From the NCBI GenBank assembly GCA_045121435.1, contig JBGVFY010000065.1, forward strand, positions 2,953 to 66,952: a stretch of DNA of 64,000 nt, read 5' to 3'. Under the pieces are notes generated by a model. It searched no databases. It had not been told where the DNA came from and worked only from the letters and a program-made list of their open reading frames with translations. Source of the stretch: Paludibacteraceae bacterium (lineage in GTDB: Bacteria > Bacteroidota > Bacteroidia > Bacteroidales > Paludibacteraceae). Both the position numbers and the translations under genes were made by a program. Below, piece by piece: positions 33,008 to 55,799 of this stretch. Within the stretch, counting starts at the first letter, position 1, and the number at the start of each line of letters is the position of its first letter.

Positions 33008-33050
33008 CGCAAAAAAACACTACCCTTGCGCAAAGGTAGCGCAAGGGTAG
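33008..33050 (-). terminator. intrinsic terminator closing B12 operon 1
   Basis: On the minus strand TACCCTTGCGCtacctttGCGCAAGGGTA is followed by gtgTTTTTTTg. Confidence 0.8.
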
Positions 33051-33085
33051 CGAAATGACCGTATTACGGATTGGTGACTATACCA

Positions 33086-34645
33086 TCATTCTTCTATTTG
33101 GAAACGAACGGCAATATCGTCAAAAGCAAAGTGTGAAGGTATATTCTCTTTCTCACAAACTTTACAAAATTTTATAGAAGCGACTTTTCCTAGAAAAGCA
33201 AGATTCAATTTGGTCCATCCATCAATGAACGTCCCTTTTTTATAAAGATCAAGCTTTGCAGTTCCAGTGACCTCATCATTTCGATTATATCCAGTTACCA
33301 CCAAAGTATAGGTGTCATCGTCATCAAGTTGGTCCATACTGCCATTAGGTCCCTCTCCTAAAGCACTCGCATACATTAATGTGGTTAGATTTACATAAAT
33401 ATGGTCTATCACACGCTCATTTTCATCTCCAAAAAAGATAGGTGTTGCTGGGTCAGTTACACCATATCCAGCATTTGCTACACAAAAATTAGTGCCACTA
33501 TGTCCACTGGTTCCAAATGCAGTTAATTGAGTTGTCCAATCTTTATTGCTTTCATAATCTTCACTCGCAATGTTCGAAATGGCTATACCACATTCTTGAT
33601 AAGTCGCAAAGAAATGCGCAAGTTTGGTATTGTATTCATCGTACCAACAATAGCAATCTGCATAACGGTATTCTGGATCAATCCAGCCGGTCGGATCGAA
33701 TCCTGATGCACCATATTGTGCACCATAAAGTAAACCGCCCCAGAACATACTACCTTGGTCTGGATCAATCAGATCTGACCATGTCTCAATCGTAAAGTAT
33801 TCATCATATTGCAATTCGTATGGATCAAAACTCTTGTCTGCGAGATTAGTCCAATCCTCAAAGGTCAGCGTTTTGAGTTGGTAGTCGGCTACTTTTGGTG
33901 GCATTACCATGGCTTGATTGGGTGTAAATGTAGCGGAAGATGTCTTCTCAAAGTCCGCAATAAGAGATTCATCGTCTTCCAAAACCTCTACCTTAAAGCC
34001 CTTTTGCCATTCGCCTGCAGGCACTACAATATAGAATAATTTAGGTGCATTTTCAAGAAAAGCACCTCTACAATCAAGCGTATATTTATCACCTGTTTTG
34101 CGGTTGGTAACTACAATATCGCTCAATCTTTTGCTTCCTCTAAGTTGCAAACCAAGCAAAGCGTTTTGAGCTTCAAGAGTGAAGCCACTCAAATCGCCAT
34201 TCTCTGCGTGCATGGTCATCAACTCATCGCCAAAGCCATTTTTCACATATGTTTGGTTAGCGAGATTAGGTGTAGTAACTGGATAATCTACGGTATAAGT
34301 AGTTCCCTCCGCAGGCATAAAGCCCTCGAACACGCCTTCGGCAGTGCCCGCACCATCTTTAAGAGTGAAGTTTGAAGATACACCATTTACTGTTACTTTG
34401 ATTTCGTCGCCTTCGTTCCAAGTGAGTTTGATAGCTCCATTGGTTTGGCTATCTGGAGTGTCGTCCAAACCAGAAACGCGTTGTTTACCAGGCATTTGCT
34501 TCGCACCGCCATTAGGGTTGGCGATAGTGGCAGAGAGCGTTACTTTTTGTCCTTTTTGGAAAGGAGTGCCTAACTCCTCATTTTGATTGTTTTGGCAGGC
34601 AGCAAACAACACTGCAATAGCCAAGAAATAGAAATACTTTTTCAT
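33086..34645 (-). CDS. surface lipoprotein, C-terminal half DUF4465-like (paralogous to 36050..37117)
   Basis: The 519-aa ORF has lipobox MKKYFYFLAIAVLFAAC. It contains YQLKTLTFEDWT...WSDLIDPDQG...CWYDEYNTKLAH...FAFDDIAVRF. Confidence 0.7.
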   Translation of the reverse strand: MKKYFYFLAIAVLFAACQNNQNEELGTPFQKGQKVTLSATIANPNGGAKQMPGKQRVSGLDDTPDSQTNGAIKLTWNEGDEIKVTVNGVSSNFTLKDGAGTAEGVFEGFMPAEGTTYTVDYPVTTPNLANQTYVKNGFGDELMTMHAENGDLSGFTLEAQNALLGLQLRGSKRLSDIVVTNRKTGDKYTLDCRGAFLENAPKLFYIVVPAGEWQKGFKVEVLEDDESLIADFEKTSSATFTPNQAMVMPPKVADYQLKTLTFEDWTNLADKSFDPYELQYDEYFTIETWSDLIDPDQGSMFWGGLLYGAQYGASGFDPTGWIDPEYRYADCYCWYDEYNTKLAHFFATYQECGIAISNIASEDYESNKDWTTQLTAFGTSGHSGTNFCVANAGYGVTDPATPIFFGDENERVIDHIYVNLTTLMYASALGEGPNGSMDQLDDDDTYTLVVTGYNRNDEVTGTAKLDLYKKGTFIDGWTKLNLAFLGKVASIKFCKVCEKENIPSHFAFDDIAVRFQIEE

Positions 34646-34672
34646 AATTCATGTGGGATTTTAGTGTTGTTT

Positions 34673-34813
34673 TTACCAAGAGCCAGAGCCTTTGCCCATA
34701 GATCCTAAATTACCTTTAGGTGAAATAAAGCTTGCGCCACCACCTGAGGCACACAAGATGCCTGTTTCTACTGCCAGCACTGTAGTGCTGGGAGTTTGAT
34801 ACGATTTTTTCAT
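34673..34813 (-). CDS. 46-aa small ORF inside the operon
   Basis: The hand-translated product is MKKSYQTPSTTVLAVETGILCASGGGASFISPKGNLGSMGKGSGSW. It is below the 60-aa track cutoff and fills an otherwise empty 220-nt gap. Confidence 0.4.
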   Translation of the reverse strand: MKKSYQTPSTTVLAVETGILCASGGGASFISPKGNLGSMGKGSGSW

Positions 34814-34865
34814 GATTGTAATGTTTTTTTAATTGATTAATATTAAGTTAGTTATTTTCTGCTGA

Positions 34866-36014
34866 TTATTGTGCCGTGATGGTCAGTTCGCCCTCAAACT
34901 CCGTAAGGAAGCGTACATAGAGGTAGCCATCTTGGTCGGTAAATTGTTTCAGTTGTACCATATCCAATGTGGTAGATGAAGTGATAGCTTCGTAGAGTAC
35001 CACATCCCTATGGTATTTAGCCACGGCGTAGTCGCAATCTTTGGCAATAAATAGGTGCAATGGCTCTATGCCTGTCCATTGGATTTGAATGGTTTGCGCT
35101 GCCCAATCTTGGTAATCAATGCGATAGACATCCAGTGCTCCATCTAGATTCATGCTCATAACGGTATCTTTTGGCAGGATAATCGTAGATTCCAAGCATG
35201 TATTTGGCTCTTTAGGAGCTGGCACATAGGTCTTTACCAATCGCACTGCGCTACCATAATAGCGGAACTGCGCGCCTTTTCTTGCTTGTTTGGCGGTGAT
35301 ATCAAAATAGGAAGCATAATCAGTGGACATACCCGACGCCGACCAATAGTAGCCATTCATACCAACAAAGGACATTTTCTTATCTACTCGATAGCCCGCA
35401 GCAGGCAAGAACACAGCACCCGCCTCTTCCATCACTGCCCACTCTTCTGCAGAGAAAGACTGGTATTCAGCAAATTGAGCTGATCCATAGCTTGTATGGA
35501 AGCCCGATTTGAAGGTGATACCCTCTGGGCATACCCAAGCATCAGGAAGAAGGATAAGACCGTTGTAGCCATTTACACATGCTACACCAAGCAAAGAAGA
35601 TGCATTCGCACGATCTGTAAACAGATATTGCCATTGGTTAGCAGTGAGGGTGTACCAAGTATTGGCTGTATCTGTACCAATGGCATTAGCACCCCAATCT
35701 ACGAAATTGCCTTGAAAATCAGCCTTATTGTAGCTGGCTTTCACTCCCCATGGGGCTGCAGGATTATCCGTGCTCCAACTAAAACTATCTATCCAGCCAT
35801 CATAATCCGCAGCGATATTGCCGTTGGCTGCACCTATATAATCGTATTGATTTTCCGCAAAACGCCATTCATCATTTGCAGGGTGGTACTGCAAGTTACC
35901 TGCAGAAAAAACGACTTGCTTGTCTGCACTAACAGAAAAAGCGGCTTCAGCAGGTGTGGCAAACACACATGCTACGACAGCGAGGCATAATACCAAAGTA
36001 GTAATTCGTTTCAT
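34866..36014 (-). CDS. exported lectin-fold-like protein (FISUMP/DUF1566-like by eye) with extra C-terminal domain
   Basis: The start is set at MKRITTLVLCLAVVACVFA. The sequence includes FSAGNLQYHP..WRFAENQYDYIG...NGYYWSAS...YYGSAVRLV. Confidence 0.6.
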   Translation of the reverse strand: MKRITTLVLCLAVVACVFATPAEAAFSVSADKQVVFSAGNLQYHPANDEWRFAENQYDYIGAANGNIAADYDGWIDSFSWSTDNPAAPWGVKASYNKADFQGNFVDWGANAIGTDTANTWYTLTANQWQYLFTDRANASSLLGVACVNGYNGLILLPDAWVCPEGITFKSGFHTSYGSAQFAEYQSFSAEEWAVMEEAGAVFLPAAGYRVDKKMSFVGMNGYYWSASGMSTDYASYFDITAKQARKGAQFRYYGSAVRLVKTYVPAPKEPNTCLESTIILPKDTVMSMNLDGALDVYRIDYQDWAAQTIQIQWTGIEPLHLFIAKDCDYAVAKYHRDVVLYEAITSSTTLDMVQLKQFTDQDGYLYVRFLTEFEGELTITAQ

Positions 36015-36049
36015 TGTGTAATATTGTGATTTTAAATATGTTATGATCA

Positions 36050-37117
36050 TTATTGTCCAAGCACATTATACTCCTTACCATCGCGGATAATCAGCAATTG
36101 ATTATTGCGGATAACCTTGTAGGCGTTGGTAGTATTGCTTTGGATATTCTCAACTGCAGTTGTCTCTTTAGGGAAGCGAACAGCCACATCATCGTATGCA
36201 AAATAACCAGGAATAGTGAAGCCATATTTTCCACCCATATCTTCAGAATAAAGGAAATTGAAGCGCACCTTAGCCACCTCGCCCAAGGAAGACAGATCCC
36301 ATTTCTGCCAATCGGTAACAACCTCTGTGCCTTTTACTAAATAGAACTCTACTGAGTCTTTAGGAGTAGCATACGCGTCGGCATCTACATCATCAAAACT
36401 ATATGCCACAATCTTCAGCCACGCATCTTCTGTGAGTCCTTCCCAATTGCCTCCGAAGGTGTTACCTTCTTCGCTTTTAACGCCATTTACAAGCTGATTG
36501 AGCGTGTAGTTGGTGTTGATGACATACATGTGGTCAATTACGCGTTTCTCGCCATCTTCAAATCTCAGTTCGGGCAGATTCTCTATGTAGGTAAAGAAAT
36601 CCTTGTAGCCATAGTGAACGGCAAAATTTTTGCCTGAATGTGGCTTAGTTGGCACCATCATTTGAACACAGAACCAACCGAGAGCTCCATCAGCACCTGG
36701 CTTACCAGCCCATTGATCCACATAATCTTGACCATAAAAGGTTGCAATATGTTTATTTCTATCCTCATCATCAAAGCCTTCGCCCCAGTAGTTGGAGATA
36801 GCGTGACCGCCGCCCCAATAGCAGAAGGAGTAGTTGTCAGGGAAAGTATGCGCCAACTCAGTGTTGTTCTCGTCGTACCAATGGTATTCGGCGCTCATAT
36901 AATCCGCATAGGTCAATGGACCACCATACTGTGGGTCGTCGATAAGGTCTGACCATGTGGTGATGGTTCTACCCGCCCAATCATCTGCATAATCGAGAGA
37001 ATACTCGCTAAACTGTGCATCTTCGTCTTCGAAGGTTAAGACGCGCAACTCGTAGTCCTGCGCCATGAGGGCTACATTCATTAGGCATAAAGCCGCAAAG
37101 AAGAAAATCTTTTTCAT
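36050..37117 (-). CDS. exported DUF4465-like protein with short T9SS-sorting-like tail
   Basis: The 355-aa ORF has a signal peptide and contains YELRVLTFEDED...WSDLIDDPQYGG...HWYDENNTELAH. The tail is AYKVIRNNQLLIIRDGKEYNVLGQ. Confidence 0.7.
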   Translation of the reverse strand: MKKIFFFAALCLMNVALMAQDYELRVLTFEDEDAQFSEYSLDYADDWAGRTITTWSDLIDDPQYGGPLTYADYMSAEYHWYDENNTELAHTFPDNYSFCYWGGGHAISNYWGEGFDDEDRNKHIATFYGQDYVDQWAGKPGADGALGWFCVQMMVPTKPHSGKNFAVHYGYKDFFTYIENLPELRFEDGEKRVIDHMYVINTNYTLNQLVNGVKSEEGNTFGGNWEGLTEDAWLKIVAYSFDDVDADAYATPKDSVEFYLVKGTEVVTDWQKWDLSSLGEVAKVRFNFLYSEDMGGKYGFTIPGYFAYDDVAVRFPKETTAVENIQSNTTNAYKVIRNNQLLIIRDGKEYNVLGQ

Positions 37118-37144
37118 GTTGTTTATTGTTTTATTTAGTTGATG

Positions 37145-39196
37145 TTATTTATTCCATTTAGGTGTGATACCCACAAATATCTCGAAGTTGATACCCGGCA
37201 TTGGACGGGATAGAACGGAGAGATATTCTTCGTTGAAAAGGTTGTTAATCGCTGCTTTGGCAGACAAGTCCGCCCAATTAAACACAAATACCTTCTCCAG
37301 CGAGATATTGCTCATAAAGTATTGTGGCAGTTTGCCCGTCAGTGAAATATCGTTGGAGGACATGGTAAAACGCTCTGAATAATAGCACCACTTATACAAG
37401 AATGACCACCTGCGCCATGAGAGGCGTCCTGTGATGGTGGAAGATAACTCAGGCACATATGGCAATTGTTTGCCTACAGATTGGTCAGCAGGCGTGCGTG
37501 GCTCACCCTCGTTGATAGAGGGTGTCCATGAGAAGGTTCCATTGAGCCCTAACTGCCATGTCTTGCTAAGTGCCACATCCAAATCGGCTTTCAATTCCAC
37601 ACCATAGGCATGAACATCCTTGATATTATCGGGCGAGAAGAATCCCTTGGTAGTAGGAAGCCAAATAATCCAGTCCTTGATAAACGACTCGAACCAGTTG
37701 GCAGAACCACTTAGCGAATAGACTCCCTCTTTGCCTACAGCAAACGACAAGCCTGCATCGTATGTCCAACCGCTCTCGTGCTTCAGGTCGGGATTACCAC
37801 CAGGCAAGAAGTACAGGTCGTTGAGCGTAGGATAACGGAAATTGCGCGATACGGACGCCTTAGCCACAAGATTGCCTTTCTTGGATAGCACACCATCTAT
37901 AAAGAATGCAGGGATAACAGGTGTCCATTCCTTGCCATACATCTCTTCGCGAACTACTACAGATAGTCCAAGACGGTCAATAGGTCGCCACTTGGCAGAT
38001 ACTGCCGCAGAGAGTTCGGGACGACCTTTGCGATAGCCCACAATGGCCTTATTGCCATCTTGGCGCACGATATTCTTGTCTTCGCTCTCTACGATATGCT
38101 GGTGCAAGGAGACATTGGCAGTAAACAGCCACTTTTTACCAATATAATATTCTCCGTCCACCTGTCCGTAAATGGTATTGATACGGCTTCTGGAGCGAGT
38201 CATGTGTGCCATATTACCATTGCCCACATCACGCTTGTAGTCGTATGCCATCCATGTATAGATATATCCTGCTTTGGCTCCCAGTTTCCATGTCTCACGC
38301 AGGTGATCCCATGAGAATACTCCTCGAAAAGTCTGCTCACGCTGACGATTCTCAAATTCAGTTTCATCGCCATAATCCACCGTGAGCATTGCCAATTCGC
38401 GATTAGAGTTGATATACCATGCATTCAAACCGAATCGGTCGCCCTTACCTGTATTATAATAGACCTCCTGCAGGATATGCAAATCTTTGAACGACCCACT
38501 ACGATTGCGCTCAATCGGATAGTATTGGTCAATGATATTCATATCGTCGTCATAGACATTGATTTTCTTGTCGTGGTTGCGGTATTTGTAGTCGTTAGGC
38601 GATGAGGAGAACACTACGCGTGTGGAGGTCTGCCAATGGTCGTTGCCATAGGTAAGGCGCAGAAACTCATCGAAAGTCTTGAACGAACCTACACCTTGTA
38701 TATATTGCAACCCAAAGCCATCGGCATTGGCTGGGCGTGTGGATAGTTTGACCGAGCCACCTAATCCGCCACCTGTTTCGTTCACAGAGGATGTACCATG
38801 CAGGAGTGAGGCATCGTCGATGAAGTAGGACGGAATCATGGAGAAGTCCGTCATACCCAGCATAGGGTTGTTGATCTTCATACCGTTCCAAGATACTTGG
38901 GTATGCGAAGGCGATGTGCCTCGAAAAGCAACTGTGGAGAGCGTGGCGCGACCGTAGTTCTTAACAAAGATAGAGGAGTTGAAGGTCAAGACATCCGCCA
39001 TGGAGAGGGAGATATTCTCCTTCAGAACAACCGTGTCAAATTTAGTCTGCTGCACGCCTACCTCTTTGATAGGGCGTCTGGCATAGACATTTACATCCCT
39101 TATTTGAATATGTCTCGCTATATTATCTTGCGTATCAGTCTCTTGTGCACTTACCGCAAGAGGGATAAATGCTAATATCAGTATCAATTTCTTCAT
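37145..39196 (-). CDS. TonB-dependent outer-membrane transporter (BtuB-like)
   Basis: The start is set at MKKLILILAFIPLAVSAQE. The plug region is DVNVYARRP...VLTFNSSIFVKNYG, with a C-terminal barrel. Confidence 0.9.
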   Translation of the reverse strand: MKKLILILAFIPLAVSAQETDTQDNIARHIQIRDVNVYARRPIKEVGVQQTKFDTVVLKENISLSMADVLTFNSSIFVKNYGRATLSTVAFRGTSPSHTQVSWNGMKINNPMLGMTDFSMIPSYFIDDASLLHGTSSVNETGGGLGGSVKLSTRPANADGFGLQYIQGVGSFKTFDEFLRLTYGNDHWQTSTRVVFSSSPNDYKYRNHDKKINVYDDDMNIIDQYYPIERNRSGSFKDLHILQEVYYNTGKGDRFGLNAWYINSNRELAMLTVDYGDETEFENRQREQTFRGVFSWDHLRETWKLGAKAGYIYTWMAYDYKRDVGNGNMAHMTRSRSRINTIYGQVDGEYYIGKKWLFTANVSLHQHIVESEDKNIVRQDGNKAIVGYRKGRPELSAAVSAKWRPIDRLGLSVVVREEMYGKEWTPVIPAFFIDGVLSKKGNLVAKASVSRNFRYPTLNDLYFLPGGNPDLKHESGWTYDAGLSFAVGKEGVYSLSGSANWFESFIKDWIIWLPTTKGFFSPDNIKDVHAYGVELKADLDVALSKTWQLGLNGTFSWTPSINEGEPRTPADQSVGKQLPYVPELSSTITGRLSWRRWSFLYKWCYYSERFTMSSNDISLTGKLPQYFMSNISLEKVFVFNWADLSAKAAINNLFNEEYLSVLSRPMPGINFEIFVGITPKWNK

Positions 39197-39206
39197 AGTA
39201 CACCGT

Positions 39207-40274
39207 TTATTTCCAACAAAAGGCACCAGGGATAATGCCTACATAAAAACTATCAACGGGTTGTCTATCCTTGGTATAGCGATAGACCATACCTTGTTGC
39301 ACATAGTCAATGGCATCGGCGATATAGACATCGCCAGTGTGAGGGCAGACCGTTAGACCATAATAGAGCGTTCCATTGTATGGCAAGAATGGTCGCACGG
39401 GTACGCGGTCGGCTGTAACATCCATCTCCCATACATCGTCGTTGAGCCAATAGATCTTGTCCTTTGTGCCGTTGAGTTGTACTTCGGATGGCCAGTCACC
39501 AAAATCAAACTTAAACTGCTTTTCTATGGTAAAGGTCTCTGCATCAATGCGGTAGAGTGATGGTGCTTCGTGTCCGTAGGGCGAGCCTTCGTAGCCGCCG
39601 TCAGTGACTGTCCAGAGTTTTTGATTGCAGTCCATTACGAGTGAAGTAGGCTGAATACCGACCACGAGTTCATCTACGACTTGGTCAGTCTCGGTGTCGA
39701 TCTTGAGGATGCGGTTTTGGTAAGACCAGCAGTTGACAAACACATACTTACCATACTGCACCATCTGTTCGGTAGAGCCACTCTCCATGGTCATATTGGG
39801 GATGTCGATATAGCCTGTGATCTCGTAGCGCTTGGGGTTGACGATGAAGATACGGTTATCCCAGATCTGTGTGATATATGCCTTCTCGTCAGAGAGGAAA
39901 TGGATATAGCGGGGAGATGTGAGGTTGGTGATTCGTCCCACCTCTTTGAAGGTGTTGATGTCGATGGCAAAAACAACGTGGGAATTGTTAACCACCACCC
40001 AACCGATACTATCGCGGATAATCATGGATTGTGCCACATCGCCCAGTTTCATCGCGTTGGCACGATAGAAGATCTCGTTTTGGACGGTCTTGGTGGCAGG
40101 GTCGTAGTACGAGAGGGTGGCATTGCCATACTGGAAGTTGCCTTCGTTGCAAATGAATAGTCCTTCGCCCGAGGCGTTGAACTCTTCCTCCAAGCCATAG
40201 TCCCACTCCATGCAGGCTGTGAAAGATAGGCAGAGGGCGAGTAGCGTTATAGGAATAAACTTAGTTGTCATCAT
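39207..40274 (-). CDS. YncE/DUF5074-like beta-propeller lipoprotein
   Basis: The 355-aa ORF has lipobox LALCLSFTAC and contains LFICNEGNFQYGNATLSYYD. It is paralogous to 46338..47555 and has a 4-nt overlap with the upstream gene. Confidence 0.7.
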   Translation of the reverse strand: MMTTKFIPITLLALCLSFTACMEWDYGLEEEFNASGEGLFICNEGNFQYGNATLSYYDPATKTVQNEIFYRANAMKLGDVAQSMIIRDSIGWVVVNNSHVVFAIDINTFKEVGRITNLTSPRYIHFLSDEKAYITQIWDNRIFIVNPKRYEITGYIDIPNMTMESGSTEQMVQYGKYVFVNCWSYQNRILKIDTETDQVVDELVVGIQPTSLVMDCNQKLWTVTDGGYEGSPYGHEAPSLYRIDAETFTIEKQFKFDFGDWPSEVQLNGTKDKIYWLNDDVWEMDVTADRVPVRPFLPYNGTLYYGLTVCPHTGDVYIADAIDYVQQGMVYRYTKDRQPVDSFYVGIIPGAFCWK

Positions 40275-42028
40275 TGCTTCTTCATGTTATAGTCATAGAA
40301 TCCAAATACTTCTGTGGATACTTCTCCGAGCCAACCGCTCTTGGTATTGACGCCTACTTGCACCTTGACAAAGTCGATGTAATTCAAGTGGATAGGTTGG
40401 CAGTCCATGTCGATAGCGTGGGAGATCTTGAAGTGGTTGGCATTGGCATCTGCACTGGCATTTTCCTCGCTAGTGAGGCGATCAATCGGGCTGAAGTTGT
40501 CGGCGTAACCCCAATCGTATTCCACATTTACCCAATAGCTACCATTGCCCGAGGCGTCGTAGTTGCGTGCTTTCAGGCAAGTGCCGGTGAGGGTATAGCT
40601 ATCTGCTTCTATCCATAGCGGATAGTAGTAGTCTTGGCGATGGAATTGCGCCAAATAGTCAACCTCGCCGCTATTACCAAGATTATCAGTCCATTGCACG
40701 GGCATTTTAGGGCCTGTAGGACGGTAGTAGGTTACGCTGTAGTTTTGGATAGTCTCTGCTTTGCCCGTCTCGGAACCTGCCAACTCATACCATGTATCGT
40801 CAGGCAAGCCATTGCCATTTTCGTCTTGCATGACCCAGATGATACCTGGTTCGGATGAGCCGCTGAAGGAGTTACCGAGAATTGCCAAATCGTAGTCACC
40901 CGAATTATCAATACTATGGTCAAAACCGACCACAATATAGCCACCAAAACCACCCAATGACACCCAGTTAGGGGATGGGTTGCCATTTCTATCTACCTCC
41001 GACATACGCGCTTCTGCATACGCGATAGCTGCTTCTGGCGTGGTCTGGGTGTTGTCAAATCCGCCTGTTTTCAACTCGTTGATAAACTGCCCTGGTGCAG
41101 GTGTGTATTCATAGACCTTGTTCCAATCTGCCTTGGATGTAGCAGTCTTGGTACGGTAGAAAGCACCTTCGTTATAGACGGTAATGATGAACTCGCGAGT
41201 GATAGATATTTGTTTGTCATCTTGCTGGGTGGTGGCAGTAGCAATGAGAGTGTAATTGCCTGCCTTATCGGCAGTAAACACAAATGACGATTTAGCCGTA
41301 ATTGGCTCGTTATCACCAATTTGCCAAGTATAGGTTGCGCCATCGGTATTGCTCGTTGCAGATGGTGCAATGAGCAGTTTACGCCCTACTACGGTATGGT
41401 AGGCGGTCGCAGCGAAATCCCATACCAGGGGGATGTCTTCGCTATTAACCACTTCGATGGTAATCTGATCGCTGTGTGTGCCATCTTCGTTGGAAGCACT
41501 ACATGCAATAGCATACAGCCCGAGAGCATTCGCGAGGAATGTATAAGACAGAGTATCAGATACTTGCTCGCTGTTGAGCGTCCATACAACGGCAGTAGAC
41601 AAAGAAGTGGCGCGCACGGTGGCGTTGAGTTTGACTTCTGCACCCAAAGCCACGATAAGGTTGTCGTTTCCTGCGATAGAGACGGTTGGGATCTCTAATT
41701 CGACTACATCAATGCGTATCTCCTCGGTGTCTGTTCCGCCATCGGTGGAGACAGTCAGCACAACAAAATACTCTCCAAGCTCCTCACGCATGAAGGTGAG
41801 CGAAGGCGCAGTGCCGATGACCTCTCCGTTCATAGTCCAGTAGAACTGGGCACTGTCCGCAAATTCGTAGTTAGGGGCGATGACGATTTCTCGTCCGCAC
41901 TTGACGGTGTAGATACCATTTTCACTATCCAAACGAATTGTTGGAGGATTGGGTACCGTGATTGGCTCGTCAATGATACATGACGAGAATAGCAGGATAA
42001 AGATAGTAAACTTTAAAAATCGCTTCAT
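40271..42028 (-). CDS. surface lipoprotein: 3 Ig/PKD-like repeats + ~290-aa conserved C-terminal domain
   Basis: The 585-aa ORF has lipobox ILLFSSC. Its C-terminal domain (YEYTPAPGQFINE...SLGGFGGYIVVGFDHS...SSEPGIIWVMQDENGNGLPDDTWYELAGSE) is paralogous to 45134..46441. Confidence 0.75.
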   Translation of the reverse strand: MKRFLKFTIFILLFSSCIIDEPITVPNPPTIRLDSENGIYTVKCGREIVIAPNYEFADSAQFYWTMNGEVIGTAPSLTFMREELGEYFVVLTVSTDGGTDTEEIRIDVVELEIPTVSIAGNDNLIVALGAEVKLNATVRATSLSTAVVWTLNSEQVSDTLSYTFLANALGLYAIACSASNEDGTHSDQITIEVVNSEDIPLVWDFAATAYHTVVGRKLLIAPSATSNTDGATYTWQIGDNEPITAKSSFVFTADKAGNYTLIATATTQQDDKQISITREFIITVYNEGAFYRTKTATSKADWNKVYEYTPAPGQFINELKTGGFDNTQTTPEAAIAYAEARMSEVDRNGNPSPNWVSLGGFGGYIVVGFDHSIDNSGDYDLAILGNSFSGSSEPGIIWVMQDENGNGLPDDTWYELAGSETGKAETIQNYSVTYYRPTGPKMPVQWTDNLGNSGEVDYLAQFHRQDYYYPLWIEADSYTLTGTCLKARNYDASGNGSYWVNVEYDWGYADNFSPIDRLTSEENASADANANHFKISHAIDMDCQPIHLNYIDFVKVQVGVNTKSGWLGEVSTEVFGFYDYNMKKQ

Positions 42029-42070
42029 ATTGTATATGTATGGTTAATACATTGTATTTAACCACACAAC

Positions 42071-42119
42071 AGCCGACCATCTGCTCTAAGGGAGCAACAT
42101 GGCAGGGTGATGGTCGGCT
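42071..42119 (-). promoter_or_regulatory. 12-bp-stem hairpin (possible expression platform/attenuator) 43 nt upstream of the first gene
   Basis: On the minus strand CAGCCGACCATC..25 nt..GATGGTCGGCTG is followed by ttgtgtggtt. Confidence 0.45.
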
Positions 42120-42250
42120 GCAATGTGGTAAGATAATCCACGAAGAAGAGAGCCGATTGCCATCAGATACAATAAACGGGTACTTGGTATATTCACCAAA
42201 TACCTATACGCGCGAGCGTACCGTAAATAATATTGAAACCTGTCTGTCAT
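42086..42250 (-). other. 54-codon uORF or gene remnant immediately 3' of riboswitch 1
   Basis: The product is MTDRFQYYLRYARAYRYLVNIPSTRLLYLMAIGSLLRGLSYHIAADHHPAMLLP. Its first 15 codons align with the N-terminus of 46338..47555 (MTSSFPYDCRYANAY), and its stop lies in the loop of the 42071-42119 hairpin. Confidence 0.35.
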
Positions 42251-42254
42251 GTCG

Positions 42255-42447
42255 TTGGCTCGATTCCCCGAGAGCGTTCAACTTCGCCAAATGTTTAGCG
42301 GCATGCAGCAGGTCTTCTGACTTATCGCTCCTTCTGTTCAGCCTTCCCAATTCGTTAAGAATCAGTGACTTTTAAGATATTGAACATCGGATTGCGAATC
42401 ACAGCAGCGGGACTGTGCAGGACTTTCACCTGCTTCCCTTCACTGAA
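42255..42447 (-). promoter_or_regulatory. cobalamin (B12) riboswitch 1
   Basis: The minus-strand RNA reads GAAGGGAAGCAGGUGAAAGUCCUGCACAGUCCCGCUGCUGUGA, and the B12 box AGUCAGAAGACCUGCUGC is at 42305-42322. Confidence 0.85.
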
Positions 42448-42454
42448 TGCGGTG

Positions 42455-42462
42455 CAAAGGTA
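42455..42462 (-). promoter_or_regulatory. -7 box TACCTTTG (riboswitch 1)
   Basis: The plus strand reads caaaggta, directly upstream of the aptamer. Confidence 0.6.
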
Positions 42463-43101: not shown

Positions 43102-43398
43102 TTACTTTTGTATGATTTCCCAATGACCACTATAACCACTGCCAACAAATTTTACTTTATCTTCTAATTTCTTTAGATAACGCCCTATCGTCTTTGTGCT
43201 TACTCCTAACTGTTTGGCAATATCCTCTCTTGTTATATTGGGATTATTATAGATTAGTTCAATTATTGTTTGAGAGACACCTGACGGTAATTTCCATGTC
43301 GCGCCAGAGAGTTGATTGGCGCGAAAGTTGTTGATATTGTCGTTTTTATAAAAAATTCTTGTCTTTTCAGTCAGTATTTTTCGGTGACAATTGCGCAA
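43102..43398 (-). CDS. small winged-HTH protein, possibly a C-terminal fragment of a larger regulator
   Basis: The 98-aa ORF has a TTG start abutting the upstream stop. It contains ELIYNNPNITREDIAKQLGVSTKTIGRYLKKLEDKVKFVGSGYSGHWEII. Confidence 0.5.
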   Translation of the reverse strand: MRNCHRKILTEKTRIFYKNDNINNFRANQLSGATWKLPSGVSQTIIELIYNNPNITREDIAKQLGVSTKTIGRYLKKLEDKVKFVGSGYSGHWEIIQK

Positions 43399-45133: not shown

Positions 45134-46441
45134 TTACTCCTCGCGGATATTCAAGTCGCGGGCGTGGGAGATTTCGGTGGAGATTTCGCCTGTCCAACCA
45201 CATTGTTGGAAGACACCCGTATAGACGCGCACGAAGTCCACACAAGGCAAATGGATAGGCTCGCCTTCATCCGTAACTGCCCAATCAATATCAAACGAAC
45301 AGCGAGCAGTACTATCATTCGGATGGCAGTCGGCATAGCCGTACTCAAAGGGCTGTTGTACCCAGTATGCGCCTTTCCCGTTGGGATCGTAAGCATTATC
45401 GGGCAGGCGTGAACCAACAAAAGTGAGCGTGGAATCCTTTAGCCATTGAGGGAAATACTCTTGCGTATGGAAGGTGTTTTTATGCAGATACCCTGATTGA
45501 TTTTGATTGTCTTTCCAACGGATATAAGTAGAGTCGGTCAAGGAGTTTTTCTTATCGGGTTGTGGCGTATGGTTGGCTGATGTGCGATAGTAGGTGAGGG
45601 AGTATTGGTGTTGCGTGGATGGTGTAGCGTACTCGCTACCAGCGAGTTGGTAGAAAGGATCGTCGGGAAGCCCGTTCTGATTGATGTCGATACTGACCAT
45701 CACGATACCTGGTTCGCTACTGCCACCTTTGCTGGTAGCAGAGGCATAAAAAGAGTTGCCTTCGATGAGGAAGTCGGATTGGTTTTGGGTATTGACCACA
45801 GAGTGGTCGAAAGCAAAAGTGACATACCCACCCCATGCACCAAGCGAGATAAGAGTGCGGTTGGTACCAGCAATGGATTCTTCCACTTTTTGCAGCATCG
45901 TAGCATAGGTATCACCCTCTTCATACTGCGGCATAGTATTGACAAACTGCCCAGGGGCAGGATTGTACTCCAGCACCTTCGAAATATATGGCGAATAGGC
46001 GACTTGTTCCTCCCAAACTACTACCTTGCATAGGTGAGTGATAGGGTTTTGTTGGTCAATGATGTTCAGTCGAAGGAAGTATGTGCCTGTGTCCTTTTGG
46101 CAAAAGATAAGATCTCTTTCTGTGGAAAGTAATCTCTCGCCTTCTCGCCTCATCGCCTTAGCGGGGTCCCCGAAAACTCTTGCGTTTTGGGGTGCTCTTT
46201 CGCCTTTCGCCTCACATATCCACCACTCGTAGGTGTCACCCTCGTACTCAGGATGGAGGATGAGGGTGCGCATGCGCTCAACGGTATAGGTGTCGTCTAT
46301 ACCGAGATTGACCATGGGTATGTCGGGTTGCACACAACTAACGATAAACAAAGCACATATGAGCAGGGATATCACCCGTTCGCACAGACCATTTGCGTTT
46401 ACCCTCGCGCGAGTAGCAATGTAGTTGACCACTTGAAACAT
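45134..46441 (-). CDS. surface lipoprotein: 1 Ig-like domain + conserved C-terminal domain (paralogue of 40271..42028)
   Basis: The lipobox is LLICALFIVSC. The sequence includes LEYNPAPGQFVNT...SLGAWGGYVTFAFDHS...SSEPGIVMVSIDINQNGLPDDPFYQLAGSE. The start is uncertain (ATG 46441/46453/46528 or an internal GTG), and it overlaps the upstream gene. Confidence 0.75.
   Translation of the reverse strand: MFQVVNYIATRARVNANGLCERVISLLICALFIVSCVQPDIPMVNLGIDDTYTVERMRTLILHPEYEGDTYEWWICEAKGERAPQNARVFGDPAKAMRREGERLLSTERDLIFCQKDTGTYFLRLNIIDQQNPITHLCKVVVWEEQVAYSPYISKVLEYNPAPGQFVNTMPQYEEGDTYATMLQKVEESIAGTNRTLISLGAWGGYVTFAFDHSVVNTQNQSDFLIEGNSFYASATSKGGSSEPGIVMVSIDINQNGLPDDPFYQLAGSEYATPSTQHQYSLTYYRTSANHTPQPDKKNSLTDSTYIRWKDNQNQSGYLHKNTFHTQEYFPQWLKDSTLTFVGSRLPDNAYDPNGKGAYWVQQPFEYGYADCHPNDSTARCSFDIDWAVTDEGEPIHLPCVDFVRVYTGVFQQCGWTGEISTEISHARDLNIREE
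46163..46192. repeat. GC-rich hairpin element (family R6 variant) embedded in-frame in a CDS
   Basis: ggggtccccgaaaactcttgcgttttgggg is flanked by gc.. and ..tgctctt, as in the 58471 copy. Confidence 0.7.
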
Positions 46442-47555
46442 AGTTTTTAGCATCTGTAATATATATATCGCCGTTATAAGGATTGACTTGAATGCCGTAT
46501 GGAATCTTGATGTTTTGCTCGGTTCCATCGGTGATGAAAGATTGGGTATTGGTTATTGAATATTGGATATTGAAAACTCCATAGGTGATTTGATTGGACA
46601 TTGTTTCATCGTTCCAATGCGCTCCGTAGAAGTACATGGAGTCGTTTATAATCACCATTTCGGATGGTGATATATGGTGTAGAGTGTAAGGTGTAGGGTG
46701 TAAAGGCAGGAAGCACACCAGTTGTGGTTGGACATCTTTGTGGTCGCCGCGAGAGGTAATCCAAAGGCGGTCGTATGGGTCTTTGCGTACACGGTGAGGA
46801 TTGACACACACAGGTATCTTCTTTACTTGTCGGAAATCTGTTAAATCCACGACCGAAAGTGTAGAGTCATAGTCGGGTGCGCGGTAGCCACCTGAGTTAG
46901 CGACATAGAGGTAATTGCCAATAATCTCAAACTCCTCGGGTTGGTAGCCCACTGTTACTTGGCGAGTTACACGAAGTGTGGCAGTATCGACCTCGAAGAT
47001 GGCACCTAGTTGGGCATTAGGGTCAATGCTCACGGGACCGACATACGAACTGATATACGCCTTATCTCTGTGAAAACGAATGTAACGGCAATTAGGGATA
47101 TCTATCTGCCCAATGCGACGGCAAGTGTACAAGTCCATTACTTCGACTTTGTGCGAGCAGTTGATGACTACATAAAGTCGGTTGCCATATATCTGAATAT
47201 CATTGCCTACATCGCCTAACTCCTTTATCACATTCGGATTGCGCTCGCCATAGATATTGCGGATATAACAACCGTTGCAGAAATCAAGGTAATCAATAGT
47301 AGCTTTGTTGCTACCCATATTCCCCTCATTGAGTAGATACATACCAATGGGTTCGTTGGATGCAAAACTGCTCAATTCTCTCGATTCCATCGGCAAAACT
47401 TCATACTCCGCAGGGAAGATAATCTCATCGCCACGGCAGGAGGTGAGCAGCAAGATGGCAGTGACTATTATGCATAGCAACAAACTACGCTTGATAGTTT
47501 TATCAAGCATATACGCGTTGGCGTACCTACAATCATATGGAAAACTACTTGTCAT
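46338..47555 (-). CDS. YncE/DUF5074-like beta-propeller lipoprotein
   Basis: The lipobox is LLLTSC, and the sequence includes MYLLNEGNMGSNKATIDYLD. An alternative start is ATG 47510 (MLDKTIKR...). Confidence 0.75.
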   Translation of the reverse strand: MTSSFPYDCRYANAYMLDKTIKRSLLLCIIVTAILLLTSCRGDEIIFPAEYEVLPMESRELSSFASNEPIGMYLLNEGNMGSNKATIDYLDFCNGCYIRNIYGERNPNVIKELGDVGNDIQIYGNRLYVVINCSHKVEVMDLYTCRRIGQIDIPNCRYIRFHRDKAYISSYVGPVSIDPNAQLGAIFEVDTATLRVTRQVTVGYQPEEFEIIGNYLYVANSGGYRAPDYDSTLSVVDLTDFRQVKKIPVCVNPHRVRKDPYDRLWITSRGDHKDVQPQLVCFLPLHPTPYTLHHISPSEMVIINDSMYFYGAHWNDETMSNQITYGVFNIQYSITNTQSFITDGTEQNIKIPYGIQVNPYNGDIYITDAKNYVSSGQLHCYSREGKRKWSVRTGDIPAHMCFVYR

Positions 47556-47559: not shown

Positions 47560-47800
47560 AAGCCCTATTCCTCGAGAGCGTTCAACTTCGGGGTCCCCGA
47601 CGAGCCTCGTGGGCGAGTGGGGATGCCCTTATGCATGCAGCAGGTCTTCTGACTTATTGCTCGTTTGCTTAGCCTTCCCAGCTTGTCAGTTGATAGTTGA
47701 CAATTGACAGTTAGCCAGTGACTTAGATACGAAGCAAACGATTTTGCAAATCACAGCAGCGGGTCTGTGCAGGAATCTCACCTACTTCCCTAAAAAACTG
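47560..47800 (-). promoter_or_regulatory. cobalamin (B12) riboswitch 2
   Basis: UAGGGAAGUAGGUGAGAUUCCUGCACAGACCCGCUGCUGUGA, with the B12 box at 47637-47654. It contains the 33-nt R6 insert at 47590-47622. Confidence 0.85.
47590..47622. repeat. GC-rich hairpin element R6
   Basis: ggggtccccgacgagcctcgtgggcgagtgggg is identical to 58471-58503. Confidence 0.9.
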
Positions 47801-47810
47801 AATGCGGGTG

Positions 47811-47818
47811 CAAAGGTA
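47811..47818 (-). promoter_or_regulatory. -7 box TACCTTTG (riboswitch 2) with an R5 copy at 47836-47867 supplying the -33 region
   Basis: caaaggta is followed by ttccaaatttatagcaatgtttttggattata. Confidence 0.6.
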
Positions 47819-48332: not shown

Positions 48333-48821
48333 TCAGTTAATAAAGTATTCATATTTTGTTTGTTGCTCAGCAAAATCGTAACTAAGCCATAAAGATGTTT
48401 TTCCTATCATCCAAAAACAATAGTTACCATATTCAGTAATATCATGGTATCTTACACTCCCATATATGCCTTCGTATGCATGCTGGATGGCTTTAAAATC
48501 AGTTTCCGACATATCAAGAGTGTAAGAGAATTGTTTGATTTTTTCTTTTTCTAATTCAATATCGATATAGATAGAATCGACTTTTACACTATCTTCATTT
48601 AGATCTATTACCTCTGTAGAATAGGCTTTTATTGAAATTTTACTTTCAGAAAGATGCTGAATCGTATCAATGTTGATTGGACATTTCCATGGCTCTTTAT
48701 CCAAATCTTTTAAGAACTGTTCAAAAGTACCATCAATATAAACGCCAAATACTTGTGGGCGTTGCTGGCATGAAGTAAAAAGTGCAAATACTGATACGGC
48801 AAGAATAATTAGTTTTTTCAT
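48333..48821 (-). CDS. lipoprotein of unknown function
   Basis: The 162-aa ORF has lipobox FALFTSC and is AT-rich. Confidence 0.65.
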   Translation of the reverse strand: MKKLIILAVSVFALFTSCQQRPQVFGVYIDGTFEQFLKDLDKEPWKCPINIDTIQHLSESKISIKAYSTEVIDLNEDSVKVDSIYIDIELEKEKIKQFSYTLDMSETDFKAIQHAYEGIYGSVRYHDITEYGNYCFWMIGKTSLWLSYDFAEQQTKYEYFIN

Positions 48822-48936
48822 TGTTTTGAGAGAGAATTAGAGGGAAGTTTTACCTCCATTTTGCGACCTCGTACAAGTATGCAGGCGTGAGGTGAATGTA
48901 TCAAATTAGCAATATAGAGAGTCGTAATATAAATGC

Positions 48937-51900
48937 TTAGAATAAAAGTTCTAAATCATCTAAGGTTTGCTCCCAAGTATCATCGAATAGTGTATCAATA
49001 TCTTCATCATAACAAGCATATAACATAATATGCCCTCGGGTACTTGAATCTAGCGATTTACACCCGTGGAAAGTTCCATTCCCTATGTTAAAGAAGACGG
49101 GTTCAGAATATCCAATGTCATCAAGTAATACCTCTTCAAATTCAATATGCTTAAGTCCTGAACAGCCATAGAATGCGTCGTAACCAATCTCCCCTACGCT
49201 ACTTGGCATATCAACTGTTCGTAAAGATGTACAATTCCTAAATGCACCAGGACTAATACTTTCTGTACCCTCTTTTATAGTGATGTTTGTATTGCTATTT
49301 CCTTTATTTTTATACAAAATATGATTAATATAAATAATATTATTCTGCTGTTCCTCATACCAAAGAGTCTTAAAGAAGGCGTCTTCATCAATAAATATCA
49401 CGCTTGTAGGAATTTCAATTGTAGATAATGCAGAACATCCCGAGAAAGCTTCACGCCCGATATGTGTTACAGAATTAGGAATAACAACTGAATGCACAAA
49501 TGTACATCCTTTAAATGCTTTATTAGCAATCAATGTAATACCATTAGGTATTTTAACATTTGTAACGTTACCTTGATACTTCAAAAGCTCGTTATCACAT
49601 ATTAATAATCCATCAACTTCTTTATCTGCGATACGAGCCCCCCAATAATCAGAAGATATACAACTACTTTTATTTATAAAATGTTCTCTGGGTACAACAA
49701 GATCACAAAATGCATCCTTATTTATACCCGCGACAGTTTCAGGGATTATAATTGTTGTGATGCCTTTTCTATATGTAATAATTGTATTCTTTTTTATGAG
49801 TAAGCCATTAATATCTTCATCTATAATTGTAGCTCCCCAATACCTATTTTTAGACTCAATTAATTTGCTACTATTTACAAAGTTGTTTTTTTCGAAATAA
49901 CAACCTGCAAATGCAGACATTTCAATATGTTTGATACTTTTAGGTATGGATATTGATATTAGTTTGGAACAAGATAAAAAAGCATGGATTTCTATACCAA
50001 CAACCATCAATAAAATACCCCCATAATAAACTTTTTCAGGAATAGAAATATTTGTTAGTCCCTTATAATCTTCGGAATAAATAACACTAACAGAATGAGT
50101 ATCTATCATCTTGTATGAGAGATTATCATCTTTAAATTCAATTGATTTTATTTCGAGATTATGACTTTCATATTTACTTGTATATTTCTCAACCAAATCG
50201 TTAGGAACATACATTGTAATATTCTGTTTTACAGAATCAAGCCCCTCTATGTACAAGTTTTCAGACAGACAAACAATTCTATCAAGTTGAGAACATCCCT
50301 CAATACTAATGCTACAGCATTTACTAGGAATAGTTATTGCATGTAATGCAGAGCAACCGATTATTGCTTTTCTATCAATTGATTTAAGTTCTTGAGTATA
50401 TATAGAAACTAAATTAGAACAATCTTTGAATGCTTCTTCTTCAATAGAAGTAATATGTGGAATGTTTATCTCTTGCAGTTTAGTACATCCTAAAAATGTT
50501 CTCTCGTCTATTTTAGAAACATTCTTAGGTATTTTTATTGTGCGTAATTTCAAACAACATGAAAATGCATTATGCTCTATAGATTGTATACTGTTAGGAA
50601 TTTTAGTGTTATTACAACCCCTTATCAGCCTATTGCTCCTAGTATGAATGATTGCATTGCAGTTTTCGCGAGAATCATAAGTTTTATTGTCTGCGTGAAC
50701 AGACATAAAAGATAAATTTGTACAACTTTCAAATGCACAATCTCCTATTGATGACACATTAGAAGGTATATTGATTGATGTGAGAGATGTACATCCTTCA
50801 AAAGCACCTTTACCGATGCTTACAATACTTTCGGGAAGCGTAATTGATTGGAGATTTTTGCAATTGTGAAACGCAGAATCACCAATATGTTTAATACCAT
50901 CATGTAGAGTGATGGATGTTAAAGAGATGCAATCTTCAAAAGCTTTCTTGCCAATACTATTTATATTATTTGGAATGACAATAGAAGTGAGATTTACACA
51001 CTGTTGAAAGGTTGAGTCCTCTATGATTTTTGTTGTATGATTTAGGGAAACTGATTCTAAAAAATAACATTCACAAAATGCAGATTCGCCTATATGAGTA
51101 ACGCTATCTGGTATATTAATACTTGTAAGATTACACCGCGCAAAAGCCCATTCTTCTATTTCGGTTACATTTGGAGGAATTATAATGGAGGTTAATGAAG
51201 AATCTACAAAAGCTAATTGCTTTATGATTTTTACATCGTTGGGGATAATTGTATTTTTACACCCTATAATTAAGTTATTAGATGTCGTTTCAATCATCGC
51301 ATTGCAATTATTGCGACTATCATATTGTGTTTTTTGCGCTGCAATTTTAATTTCTGCAAGATTGTTTCCGCATGAAAAAGCGTATTTTCCAATGACTTTT
51401 ACACTTTTAGGAATAATAATTGATTGAAGATTACAACCGCAGAATGCTCTTTCCCCTATTTCAGCCACACTTATTGGTATATTAATACTAGTAAGATTCT
51501 CGCAATTTTCAAAAGCACAATCACCAATCTTAATGATGGTATCTGGTAAAGTTATTGACTCAAGGTTTTGACAATTTTCAAATGCGTTGCTATCAATTTC
51601 CGTTACTTTGAATACTATGTTGTTATATTTTACTATTTGGGGAATATTAATATGCGTACATTTTTTATAAGCATCTTGGGAATGGCGATTGATATCTACA
51701 TTCGAAAAAACTTTAACGGTGTAAAGTCCTGTTATTATATAATGGATGTCATCAATAACAAAGCAAATATCATTTATTTGAAAATCATAAAATGAAAAAG
51801 AATGTTGAGGAAATATCCTTCTCAACTGATATTCAAATGAAGATTCATGCTCCATATTAATATATAAATTCATCTTATTGTCGTACTCGTTATTGTTAGG

Positions 51901-53346: not shown

Positions 53347-53418
53347 AGTATGTAATGCATTAAGGAGATTATATATTTATTTGTCAAAATTTTAGTAAAT
53401 ACCAGTATGGAAATAGGG

Positions 53419-54345: not shown

Positions 54346-54349
54346 TATA

Positions 54350-55444: not shown

Positions 55445-55470
55445 GATAGTTCGTTTTTACAAATTGTCTG

Positions 55471-55478
55471 CAAAGGTA
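55471..55478 (-). promoter_or_regulatory. -7 box TACCTTTG (364-aa/AbiH unit)
   Basis: The plus strand reads caaaggta, 27 nt upstream of the ATG at 55444. Confidence 0.6.
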
Positions 55479-55724
55479 GTGAGATTTTTTTATTTCTCCA
55501 AACTTCTGCAAGGCTTGCAGACATAAAAAGCGTGAGCTTAGACTTGCTCGCGTTGTGGCAGTAGGAATTGCCCAGAAAGAAACAAGTCACGCCCACGCCA
55601 AACGCGGACGCTTGCTGACTTGTTCGTATTCCTTTCTTTCGAAATTTCCTACTTTTCAACGCGAATAGAACAATAGCAAACGCTATGGTAGTATGTCAAT
55701 ATAATCGGATTTTATAATCCGACT

Positions 55725-55732: not shown

Positions 55733-55799
55733 AGTGAATTATTTTGAGATGTGCAAGAAAAATGCAGTTTTGGGGCGAATTTTTTGTTTGGAGAGTAGG

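Follow-up and report, generated by a model that had tools for sequence, protein, structure and literature searches.

What does a bacterium of the uncultured family Paludibacteraceae place behind a cobalamin riboswitch, and how much of it is already known from Bacteroides? The question is raised by a run of seven tightly packed open reading frames (ORF1 to ORF7) on the minus strand of a 64,000-nucleotide (nt) stretch of DNA from Paludibacteraceae bacterium (assembly GCA_045121435.1, contig JBGVFY010000065.1, positions 2,953 to 66,952), hereafter the window, with the riboswitch at their head and a terminator at their end. The initial annotation, made by eye from the letters of this DNA, had read them as a capture apparatus for corrinoids or a related tetrapyrrole that held no characterised member and could not be mapped onto BtuG and BtuH of Bacteroides. 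Sequence comparison supports the functional half of this description, a B12-riboswitch-controlled outer-membrane apparatus for corrinoid capture, and overturns the other half: ORF1, ORF2 and ORF3 are plain orthologues of BtuH2, BtuG2/3 and BtuB2/3, and ORF4 and ORF7 fall in the BtuJ family, for which B12 binding was published in 2025-2026. The locus is very probably a cobalamin-riboswitch-repressed Btu outer-membrane B12-uptake operon of a gut bacterium, represented by a metagenome-assembled genome, with the gene order btuH-btuG-btuB-btuJ(short)-orf5-orf6-btuJ'(stalked). Judged by sequence, families characterised in Bacteroides account for five of the seven genes and the locus is largely ordinary, the core being a plain orthologue of Bacteroides thetaiotaomicron operons 2 and 3; it is set apart by its gene order, by one BtuJ outside the lipoproteins and another that is stalked and hypervariable, and by two unstudied genes.

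Corrinoid competition shapes gut communities, and nearly all that defines the Btu relay, from BtuJ through BtuH/BtuG to BtuB, comes from B. thetaiotaomicron. The literature has already stressed a 'heterogeneous suite' of Btu accessory proteins, and a 2026 review lists the role of these proteins and the multiplicity of paralogues among the open questions (PMC13616437). In Paludibacteraceae the same Btu core is accompanied by different accessories, namely an unanchored BtuJ, a stalked BtuJ that lacks a hallmark Tyr, a micro-protein and a lectin-fold-like protein. Should these accessories take part in corrinoid binding or routing, they would offer natural variants for the study of selectivity and hand-off; if they do not, the locus is one more Btu operon.

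The riboswitch and the BtuH-BtuG-BtuB core

The cobalamin aptamer at the head of the operon (42290-42462, minus strand, as are all operon features below) matched the full RF00174 model (1-189) with 89.3 bits (E 9.7e-21) against a gathering score of 31.5 bits, so that the aptamer recognised by eye is confirmed by the covariance search, and orthologous aptamers also stand upstream of btuH in comparison loci L001, L092, L094 and L013. A Bacteroidota -7 box, TACCTTTG (TAnnTTTG; 42455-42462), abuts the aptamer and is a predicted promoter element. The same octamer accompanies the other two aptamers of the window (47811-47818 and 58526-58533), abutting or 21 nt upstream, and the TAnnTTTG motif shows modest enrichment across the window (85 found against 62.6+/-8.5 expected). 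From aptamer to start codon, 262 nt are occupied by a structured leader (42029-42289; minimum free energy -97 kcal/mol, z = -5.7 against shuffled sequences), in which UUGUGUGGUU comes after a GC-rich hairpin of 13 bp (42070-42120) and another hairpin ends just before the ORF1 ATG, an arrangement that could act as an expression platform either by termination or by a block to translation. Ligand-dependent repression through such leaders has been demonstrated for operons of B. thetaiotaomicron with reporter assays (PMC12751083).

All seven frames are present as initially described, with a 4-nt overlap between ORF1 and ORF2 and then gaps of 10, 27, 35, 52 and 27 nt in order to ORF7. Lipoboxes were found on ORF1, ORF2 and ORF7, and Sec-type signals on ORF3, ORF4 and ORF5. 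The strong terminator that was said to close the unit is an intrinsic terminator at 33018-33052 (initially placed at 33008-33050), with a 14-bp stem of which nine pairs are GC and a T7 tail, starting 33 nt past the ORF7 stop; uvrC, on the opposite strand, converges on it. No terminator-like site was found on the minus strand between ORF4 and ORF7. A further TACCTTTG box lies within the loop and stem of the terminator (33031-33038, minus strand), and its presence there is probably a coincidence, the octamer marking predicted promoters elsewhere in the window.

ORF1 (40271-42028; 585 amino acids, aa) is BtuH by sequence, combining three PKD_3 domains (Pfam) with a C-terminal B12-binding globular domain and aligning to BtuH2 of B. 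thetaiotaomicron (Protein Data Bank (PDB) entry 7BIZ) over 479 residues with E 5.9e-116, at 44% identity overall and 61% in the C-terminal B12 domain. Eight BtuH2 residues have been reported to contact B12 (PMC8941943), and all eight, Q333, N399, F401, H476, Y510, W511, W577 and L578 (numbering derived as chain position + 100), are identical in ORF1 in the 7BIZ alignment. The lipobox of ORF1 is LFSSC, followed by IIDEP. ORF2 (39207-40274; 355 aa) is BtuG on the same kind of evidence, a DUF5074 beta-propeller (Pfam) with the lipobox FTAC that matches BtuG3 (8P97_B, E 1.4e-192) and BtuG2 (8BMX_D, E 6.9e-192), with 77% identity to BtuG3 over 349 aa.

ORF3 (37145-39196), with Plug and TonB_dep_Rec_b-barrel domains (Pfam), is likewise identified as BtuB by its matches to BtuB2 (8BMX_C, 1225 bits, E=0) and BtuB3 (8P98_A, 1130 bits, E=0), its match to BtuB1 reaching only 81 bits (E 8e-22). 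Its open frame extends to a GTG at 39226, and the shorter start at the ATG at 39196, which gives the 683 aa first proposed, yields a proper signal peptide. The family guesses made by eye thus proved correct by Pfam throughout, including DUF4465 twice for ORF4 and ORF7. BtuG of B. thetaiotaomicron binds corrinoids very tightly and forms a stable complex with BtuB (PMC10404256, which also gives the BtuG assignments of the PDB chains). Here btuG and btuB stand side by side under a B12 riboswitch. By analogy ORF1 and ORF2 would be surface lipoproteins, ORF2 serving as the lid of BtuB.

As had been stated at the outset, no inner-membrane BtuFCD genes occur anywhere in the window. The only ABC ATPase of the window, encoded at 61761-62414, was considered as a part of such a transporter and rejected, as it adjoins an S41 peptidase gene and gldB. 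This absence is unproblematic, because BtuFCD accompanies some, not all, of the B. thetaiotaomicron outer-membrane loci (operon map in PMC12751083).

Operon 2 of B. thetaiotaomicron (BT1957-BT1949) reads btuJ2-btuH2-btuL-btuG2-btuB2-btuFCD-btuX and operon 3 btuG3-btuB3 (PMC12751083), and their products and homologues are known from B12-binding constants, structures, fitness and reporter data (PMC12751083, PMC10404256, PMC8941943, bioRxiv 10.1101/2025.07.01.662609, PMC13398666; reviewed in PMC13616437). The present locus shares with these operons a leader that holds a cobalamin riboswitch, a BtuH in which three PKD domains are joined to a B12-binding domain, and the highly similar BtuG-BtuB pair, and shares with operon 2 a DUF4465/BtuJ capture protein within the operon. 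It differs from them in its order (H-G-B-J, in contrast to J-H-(L)-G-B), in lacking BtuL, BtuFCD and BtuX as well as BtuK, and in carrying two BtuJ-family genes in the operon in place of one; ORF5, ORF6 and the stalked BtuJ are additional to the B. thetaiotaomicron operons.

Beyond B. thetaiotaomicron, the H-G-B core together with a BtuJ gene was found in about 80 Bacteroidales species. The best BtuG matches to ORF2 (94-96% identity) come from metagenome-assembled genomes (MAGs) of Paludibacteraceae, and across L008-L087, which include MAGs of Paludibacteraceae, Rikenellaceae/Alistipes, Muribaculaceae and Bacteroidaceae, BtuG identity is 86-96% and BtuB identity 72-94%. Since this conservation far exceeds what the divergence of the families would lead one to expect, the H-G-B(-J) module appears to have spread horizontally, consistent with the documented mobilisation of btuGB (PMC8759732). 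About 60 loci of Alistipes, Rikenellaceae and other Bacteroidales have the order J-H-G-B, whereas the order in Paludibacteraceae is H-G-B-J, with a free-standing BtuJ head that is preceded by a Sec signal and followed by a short tail at the C-terminus. The Alistipes/Rikenellaceae loci (L020-L087) resemble the present one in BtuH, BtuG and BtuB (60-96% identical), in the ORF4-type head (70-78%) and in an upstream riboswitch (L028), and differ in that upstream of btuH they encode a lipoprotein of 570-640 aa with the head as its C-terminal domain, and that no homologues of ORF5, ORF6 or ORF7 follow btuB. In these lipoproteins (e.g. L028, 6142-8061) the head stands behind a coiled-coil-like or fimbrillin-like module, and in L020 the BtuJ open frame continues into btuH (1177 aa).

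Two BtuJ-family proteins

ORF4 (36050-37117; 355 aa) is, by sequence, a BtuJ-family protein and a predicted corrinoid-binding jellyroll. It matches PF14717 (DUF4465; gathering score 25 bits) with 89.5 bits, and is distantly related to BtuJ2 (9I2L, E 1.3e-7), with the equivalents of Y167, Y199, N208, F210 and Y295 conserved. Its HI-loop motif TIPGYF (family reference GTPAYF/NTPAY) aligns to Y295 and its DE-helix motif NTNYT to Y199, so that the Tyr of the HI loop and that of the DE helix are both kept, and T and I stand in place of BtuJ2 N291 and T292. In B. thetaiotaomicron, BtuJ1 and BtuJ2 bind B12 and cobinamide with nM-pM affinity, have crystal structures, are borne on the cell surface and on vesicles, and confer a fitness gain under B12 limitation (PMC12751083; bioRxiv 10.1101/2025.07.01.662609). 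Six further, divergent DUF4465 members also bind B12, which makes eight in all (PMC13398666), and ORF4 shares with BtuJ1, BtuJ2 and the wider family both Pfam membership and a place in a riboswitch-controlled B12 transport locus.

ORF4 departs from BtuJ1 and BtuJ2, which are surface lipoproteins, at both of its ends. Its N-terminus MKKIFFFAALCLMNVALMAQ is a Sec signal of the signal peptidase I type with a Cys within the hydrophobic region, and no lipobox of the form [LVI][ASTVI][GAS]C was found there. Its C-terminus is a 38-aa tail (residues 318-355; 36050-36166, minus strand) that ends ...KVIRNNQLLIIRDGKEYNVLGQ / ...YKVIRNNQLLIIRDGKEYNVLGQ*, and that remains at the extreme C-terminus in orthologues of 603-652 aa with a Cys-rich repeat insert of ~300 aa (e.g. 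L001, 9860-9975). The initial annotation had called this tail similar to those of the type IX secretion system (T9SS); that suggestion was dropped, as neither the tail alone nor the whole protein matched the T9SS C-terminal domain models (TIGR04183 / Por_Secre_tail) to E<=10. A homologue search with the tail gave two marginal matches only, and a regular-expression scan of the homologues fetched found similar tails at the end of seven Fib_succ_major-like proteins (P0044, P0057, P0059, P0062, P0071, P0081 and P0115). The tail may represent a signal for sorting or anchoring that has not been described before, and surface exposure of ORF4 is a prediction, because the protein has no lipobox and its tail matches no sorting-signal model. 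Within DUF4465, ~21% of proteins have a Sec signal only and 38% carry C-terminal sorting domains (PMC12751083).

ORF7 (33086-34645; 519 aa) consists of a fimbrillin-like stalk of ~225 aa (residues ~25-250) and a divergent DUF4465 head (~251-519). It matches PF14717 with 54 bits, above the gathering score, and is a paralogue of ORF4 (32% identity, E 9e-24), as had been noticed from shared motifs. A PDB sequence search gave no match. In Foldseek searches with an AlphaFold 2 (AF2) model (predicted local distance difference test, pLDDT, 80; predicted template-modelling score, pTM, 0.81), the C-terminal half, an augmented beta-jellyroll, matched BtuJ2 (9I2L; E 7e-11, TM-score 0.65, probability 1.0), BtuJ1 (9FCT; probability 1.0), 9QPM and the DUF4465 protein D5EK51 (9HMU), and the N-terminal half matched the Bacteroides 'cell adhesion' proteins 4H40 and 3T2L. 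The protein has the lipobox FAAC (N-terminus MKKYFYFLAIAVLFAAC, then QNNQNEE), with a weak acidic export signal.

Unlike BtuJ1 and BtuJ2, ORF7 carries its head on a stalk, and this head is hypervariable between strains. Comparison with L091 (5400-6766) delimited an allelic-replacement block at 33109-34470 (minus strand): nucleotide identity is 99-100% on both flanks, 84% in the stalk part of the block and 47-73% in the head part, and returns to 100% at the stop codon. Over ~50 full-length relatives of ORF7 the stalk has a mean identity of 78% and the head of 47%, and the HI-loop motif sorts the heads into at least five types (HF, PYV, MYATM, PQPS and APQ); ORF7 itself has a counterpart of 100% identity in GCA_045119855.1.

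ORF5, ORF6 and the reading of the operon

ORF5 (34866-36014) is an uncharacterised secreted protein of 382 aa from the ATG at 36014. Its open frame runs to 36050, and the shorter start yields a proper signal peptide and a length equal to that of all orthologues, in agreement with the length first given. No Pfam or NCBIfam match to E<=10 and no PDB sequence match was obtained. The AF2 model (pLDDT 83.9) has a confidently modelled, mixed alpha/beta N-domain of ~240 aa and a C-terminal beta-sandwich of ~100 aa; Foldseek found no match of the model in PDB below E 1e-3, generic small beta-sandwiches only (PirA, PPC, collagen-binding domain) for the C-terminal domain, and in BFVD a weak match to a phage Fib_succ_major protein (E 2.6e-3). 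Because these matches are weak or generic, no fold family is claimed for ORF5.

The 'lectin-fold-like' label initially given to ORF5 is tentative, as the matches behind it are weak and indirect. More than 4400 relatives of the N-domain occur in Bacteroidales, and a few of them weakly match the C-type-lectin-fold domains Fib_succ_major (PF09603) or Lcl_C (PF07603) at E 1e-6 to 1e-7, below threshold (P0006 and P0025 match PF09603 at E 7e-6 and 8e-7, below its gathering score), whereas for ORF5 itself both models gave no match, even at E<=10. Domains of these two families act as heads that bind ligands and vary, among other cases as targets of diversity-generating retroelements (PMC4159848, PMC5758913); no such retroelement was seen here, though no search was aimed at one. 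In paralogues such as P0076 an ORF5-type N-domain forms the head on an ORF7-like stalk. Full-length relatives of ORF5 are few, each one seen in context being encoded directly after the short BtuJ of a Btu operon. By operon position ORF5 and ORF6 are predicted to be riboswitch-co-regulated accessories, as are BtuK and BtuL, of which BtuK2 and BtuL bind no B12. BtuK (PKD and a seven-bladed propeller) and BtuL (a repetitive L-domain/leucine-rich-repeat (LRR)-like lipoprotein) differ from ORF5, which has a Fib_succ_major-like domain and a beta-sandwich: no PKD, propeller or LRR match was found in Pfam, and the model and the missing lipobox disagree as well. A lipobox-like VVAC is present in ORF5, and its reading as a lipoprotein was rejected, as four orthologue clusters have no Cys.

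ORF6 (34673-34813; 46 aa) is 80-100% identical across six loci, with six synonymous against one non-synonymous change in its first 27 codons. Because it is conserved and synonymous changes dominate, it is taken to be a real gene. It gave no match in Pfam and NCBIfam to E<=10. Its relatives were located in L001-L004, L088-L092 and L094; an exhaustive search added seven further clusters of 43-57 aa, with the consensus MKKxYQxPxT..VETxILCASG...G.L.SIGK..G.W*. Wherever seen, ORF6 lies directly upstream of the long BtuJ, also in L093, where the pair precedes btuH and the contig holds only the last codons of ORF6. The A-rich 52-nt spacer before it (34814-34865, minus strand) is identical at 51 of 52 positions between the window and L001, where the flanking genes are 77-83% identical, and might act as an internal promoter or in the initiation of translation.

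In L001-L004, a sister lineage, the seven-gene operon is followed (13173-18759) by a ScmC / S24-like / PqqD / NTP_transf_5 cluster that resembles maturation genes of ribosomally synthesised and post-translationally modified peptides (RiPPs), and also by genes for an Asp-Al_Ex transporter and for a third DUF4465 protein of 295 aa, all of them absent from the window. A role of ORF6 as a RiPP precursor was not adopted, as the PqqD/NTP_transf_5/ScmC cluster is absent from the window, L091, L092 and L094.

With the B. thetaiotaomicron relay as template (review PMC13616437), the operon would work as follows. When intracellular cobamide is low, the leader would permit transcription and translation of the whole unit, and the two BtuJ-type DUF4465 proteins would catch corrinoids outside the cell, ORF7 on its lipid-anchored stalk and ORF4 as a secreted protein with a C-terminal tail. 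From them the corrinoid would go to BtuH and BtuG, both surface lipoproteins, and BtuG, as the lid of BtuB, would deliver it for TonB-driven import, to be completed by an inner-membrane BtuFCD encoded elsewhere in the genome; when cobamide is replete, its binding to the aptamer would turn the operon off. ORF5 is at best guess an accessory or scaffold partner of the short BtuJ, and ORF6 one of the stalked BtuJ. A fuller proposal is more tentative and, taken jointly, rather doubtful: that the ORF7 pocket has been remodelled (Tyr to His, at least five heads on one stalk, an allelic cassette), with ORF6 as its obligatory partner peptide and ORF5 as an unanchored lectin-fold partner of the short BtuJ, either binding corrinoid or acting as a tether. 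If it is true, ORF5 to ORF7 would be undescribed layers of the Bacteroidota corrinoid relay, and the exchange of ORF7 heads would suggest strain-level specialisation for corrinoids or cobamide analogues, or the escape of an abundant surface receptor from phages or antibodies that target it.

Several points weigh against an uptake role for the whole unit. ORF5 and ORF6 have no characterised relative or functional anchor, ORF4 combines the missing lipobox with the unmatched tail, and the spacer before ORF6 could hold the internal promoter mentioned above. The HI loop of ORF7 reads NIPSHF, with His at a position where Tyr is retained in 97% of DUF4465 proteins (PMC13398666), and Val stands at the equivalent of BtuJ2 Y167; the relatives of ORF7 have H, a shifted Y, M, S or Q at the HI-loop position. 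The His-for-Tyr assignment rests on the pairwise alignment with ORF4 and on motif register, because alignments of the ORF7-family profile to PDB chains end before the HI loop. By profile and modelled fold ORF7 is a DUF4465 member, but it fails the hallmark-residue test, and from these two substitutions, with BtuK2 as precedent for a non-binding paralogue, it may bind corrinoid differently or not at all.

These points lend themselves to another explanation, in which ORF5, ORF6 and ORF7, or ORF5 and ORF6, form a hitch-hiking surface cassette that merely shares location or transcription with the Btu core, is functionally unrelated to corrinoid uptake and could serve adhesion, glycan binding or as a decoy for phage or antibodies. 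The family of the ORF5 N-domain is indeed very large and made up of generic surface heads of Bacteroidales, also found on ORF7-like stalks, the ORF7 head is without the hallmark Tyr, its allelic swapping and hypervariability are typical of surface proteins under immunity or phage pressure, the ORF6-ORF7 pair occurs on either side of the Btu core, and the spacer before ORF6 is highly conserved. Against this, full-length relatives of ORF5 and of ORF6/ORF7 were confined to Btu operons in nine of nine loci inspected, ORF7 exceeds the DUF4465 threshold and has the BtuJ fold in its model, the eight B12-binding DUF4465 proteins are themselves very divergent (PMC13398666), and the minus strand runs from ORF4 to ORF7 without a terminator-like site. 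Such a cassette is accordingly considered unlikely, though less so than either of the two explanations that follow.

The reading from which this work started, an elaborate machine for corrinoids or another tetrapyrrole without any part matching a characterised protein, could appeal to ORF5 and ORF6, which match no Pfam or NCBIfam family, to the missing PDB match of ORF5 and to ORF7, which has no sequence-level match in PDB. Plain orthology indeed covers ORF1-3 and not every accessory gene, ORF5 and ORF6 having no characterised relative and ORF7 being an atypical BtuJ. This reading is nevertheless refuted for ORF1-4 and ORF7, as five of the seven frames map decisively to BtuH, BtuG, BtuB and BtuJ, the corrinoid contacts of BtuH are conserved, and the aptamer that serves as regulator is one for cobalamin and not for haem or another tetrapyrrole, which leaves this reading hardly any probability. 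Equally improbable is a recently transferred or decaying, non-functional copy whose work is done by the BtuB1-type system of the window (see below): the locus is a recombination mosaic, and the high identity of BtuG and BtuB across Bacteroidales families and the documented mobilisation of btuGB (PMC8759732) speak for horizontal spread, but seven of seven frames are intact, with signal peptides, ORF6 is under purifying selection, the aptamer is intact, and the architecture persists in lineages whose divergence has brought protein identity down to 49-80%. Of the loci that share it, L001-L004, L092 and L094 have the full seven-gene order with the riboswitch, and L091 has it up to the contig limit, at different chromosomal sites. 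A functional, riboswitch-repressed Btu operon thus remains the preferred reading of the locus.

A second Btu system in the window

A single B12 aptamer had been noted initially, and two further cobalamin riboswitches in the window had been missed. Both are full-length and on the minus strand (47622-47817, 73.0 bits; 58322-58505, 73.9 bits), giving three B12-controlled units within 25 kb, and the genes behind these two form a second system of BtuB1/BtuG1 type. The unit under the riboswitch at 47622-47817 (45134-47555, minus strand) encodes a BtuG1-like propeller of 405 aa, with 146 bits to the G-domain of B. thetaiotaomicron BtuG1/BtuGH, and a separate BtuH-like lipoprotein, a 464-aa ORF 32% identical to ORF1 and sharing the C-terminal motif ...GW.GE.STE. 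The two frames overlap by 190 nt, with no adjacent BtuB gene; in BtuGH of B. thetaiotaomicron, in contrast, the BtuG1-like and BtuH-like domains are fused.

The unit under the riboswitch at 58322-58505 (48333-58296, minus strand) begins with a BtuB1-type transporter (379 bits to 8BLW_A, E 3.5e-112), followed by genes for a 364-aa protein without family, AbiH, a 1469-aa BspA-type LRR protein and a 162-aa lipoprotein. The LRR protein is possibly analogous to the L-domain-like BtuL. AbiH is an abortive-infection protein (Pfam 171 bits; PADLOC AbiH), and a phage-defence gene within a B12 locus is an odd neighbour.

A 98-aa winged-helix helix-turn-helix (HTH) ORF (43102-43398, minus strand) lies in a gap of 1.4 kb that precedes the riboswitch of the seven-gene operon on its upstream side. 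The equivalent position in L094 is occupied by a 497-aa SLFN_AlbA_2/HATPase_c_4/HTH protein, and the 98-aa ORF may be the remnant of such a gene.

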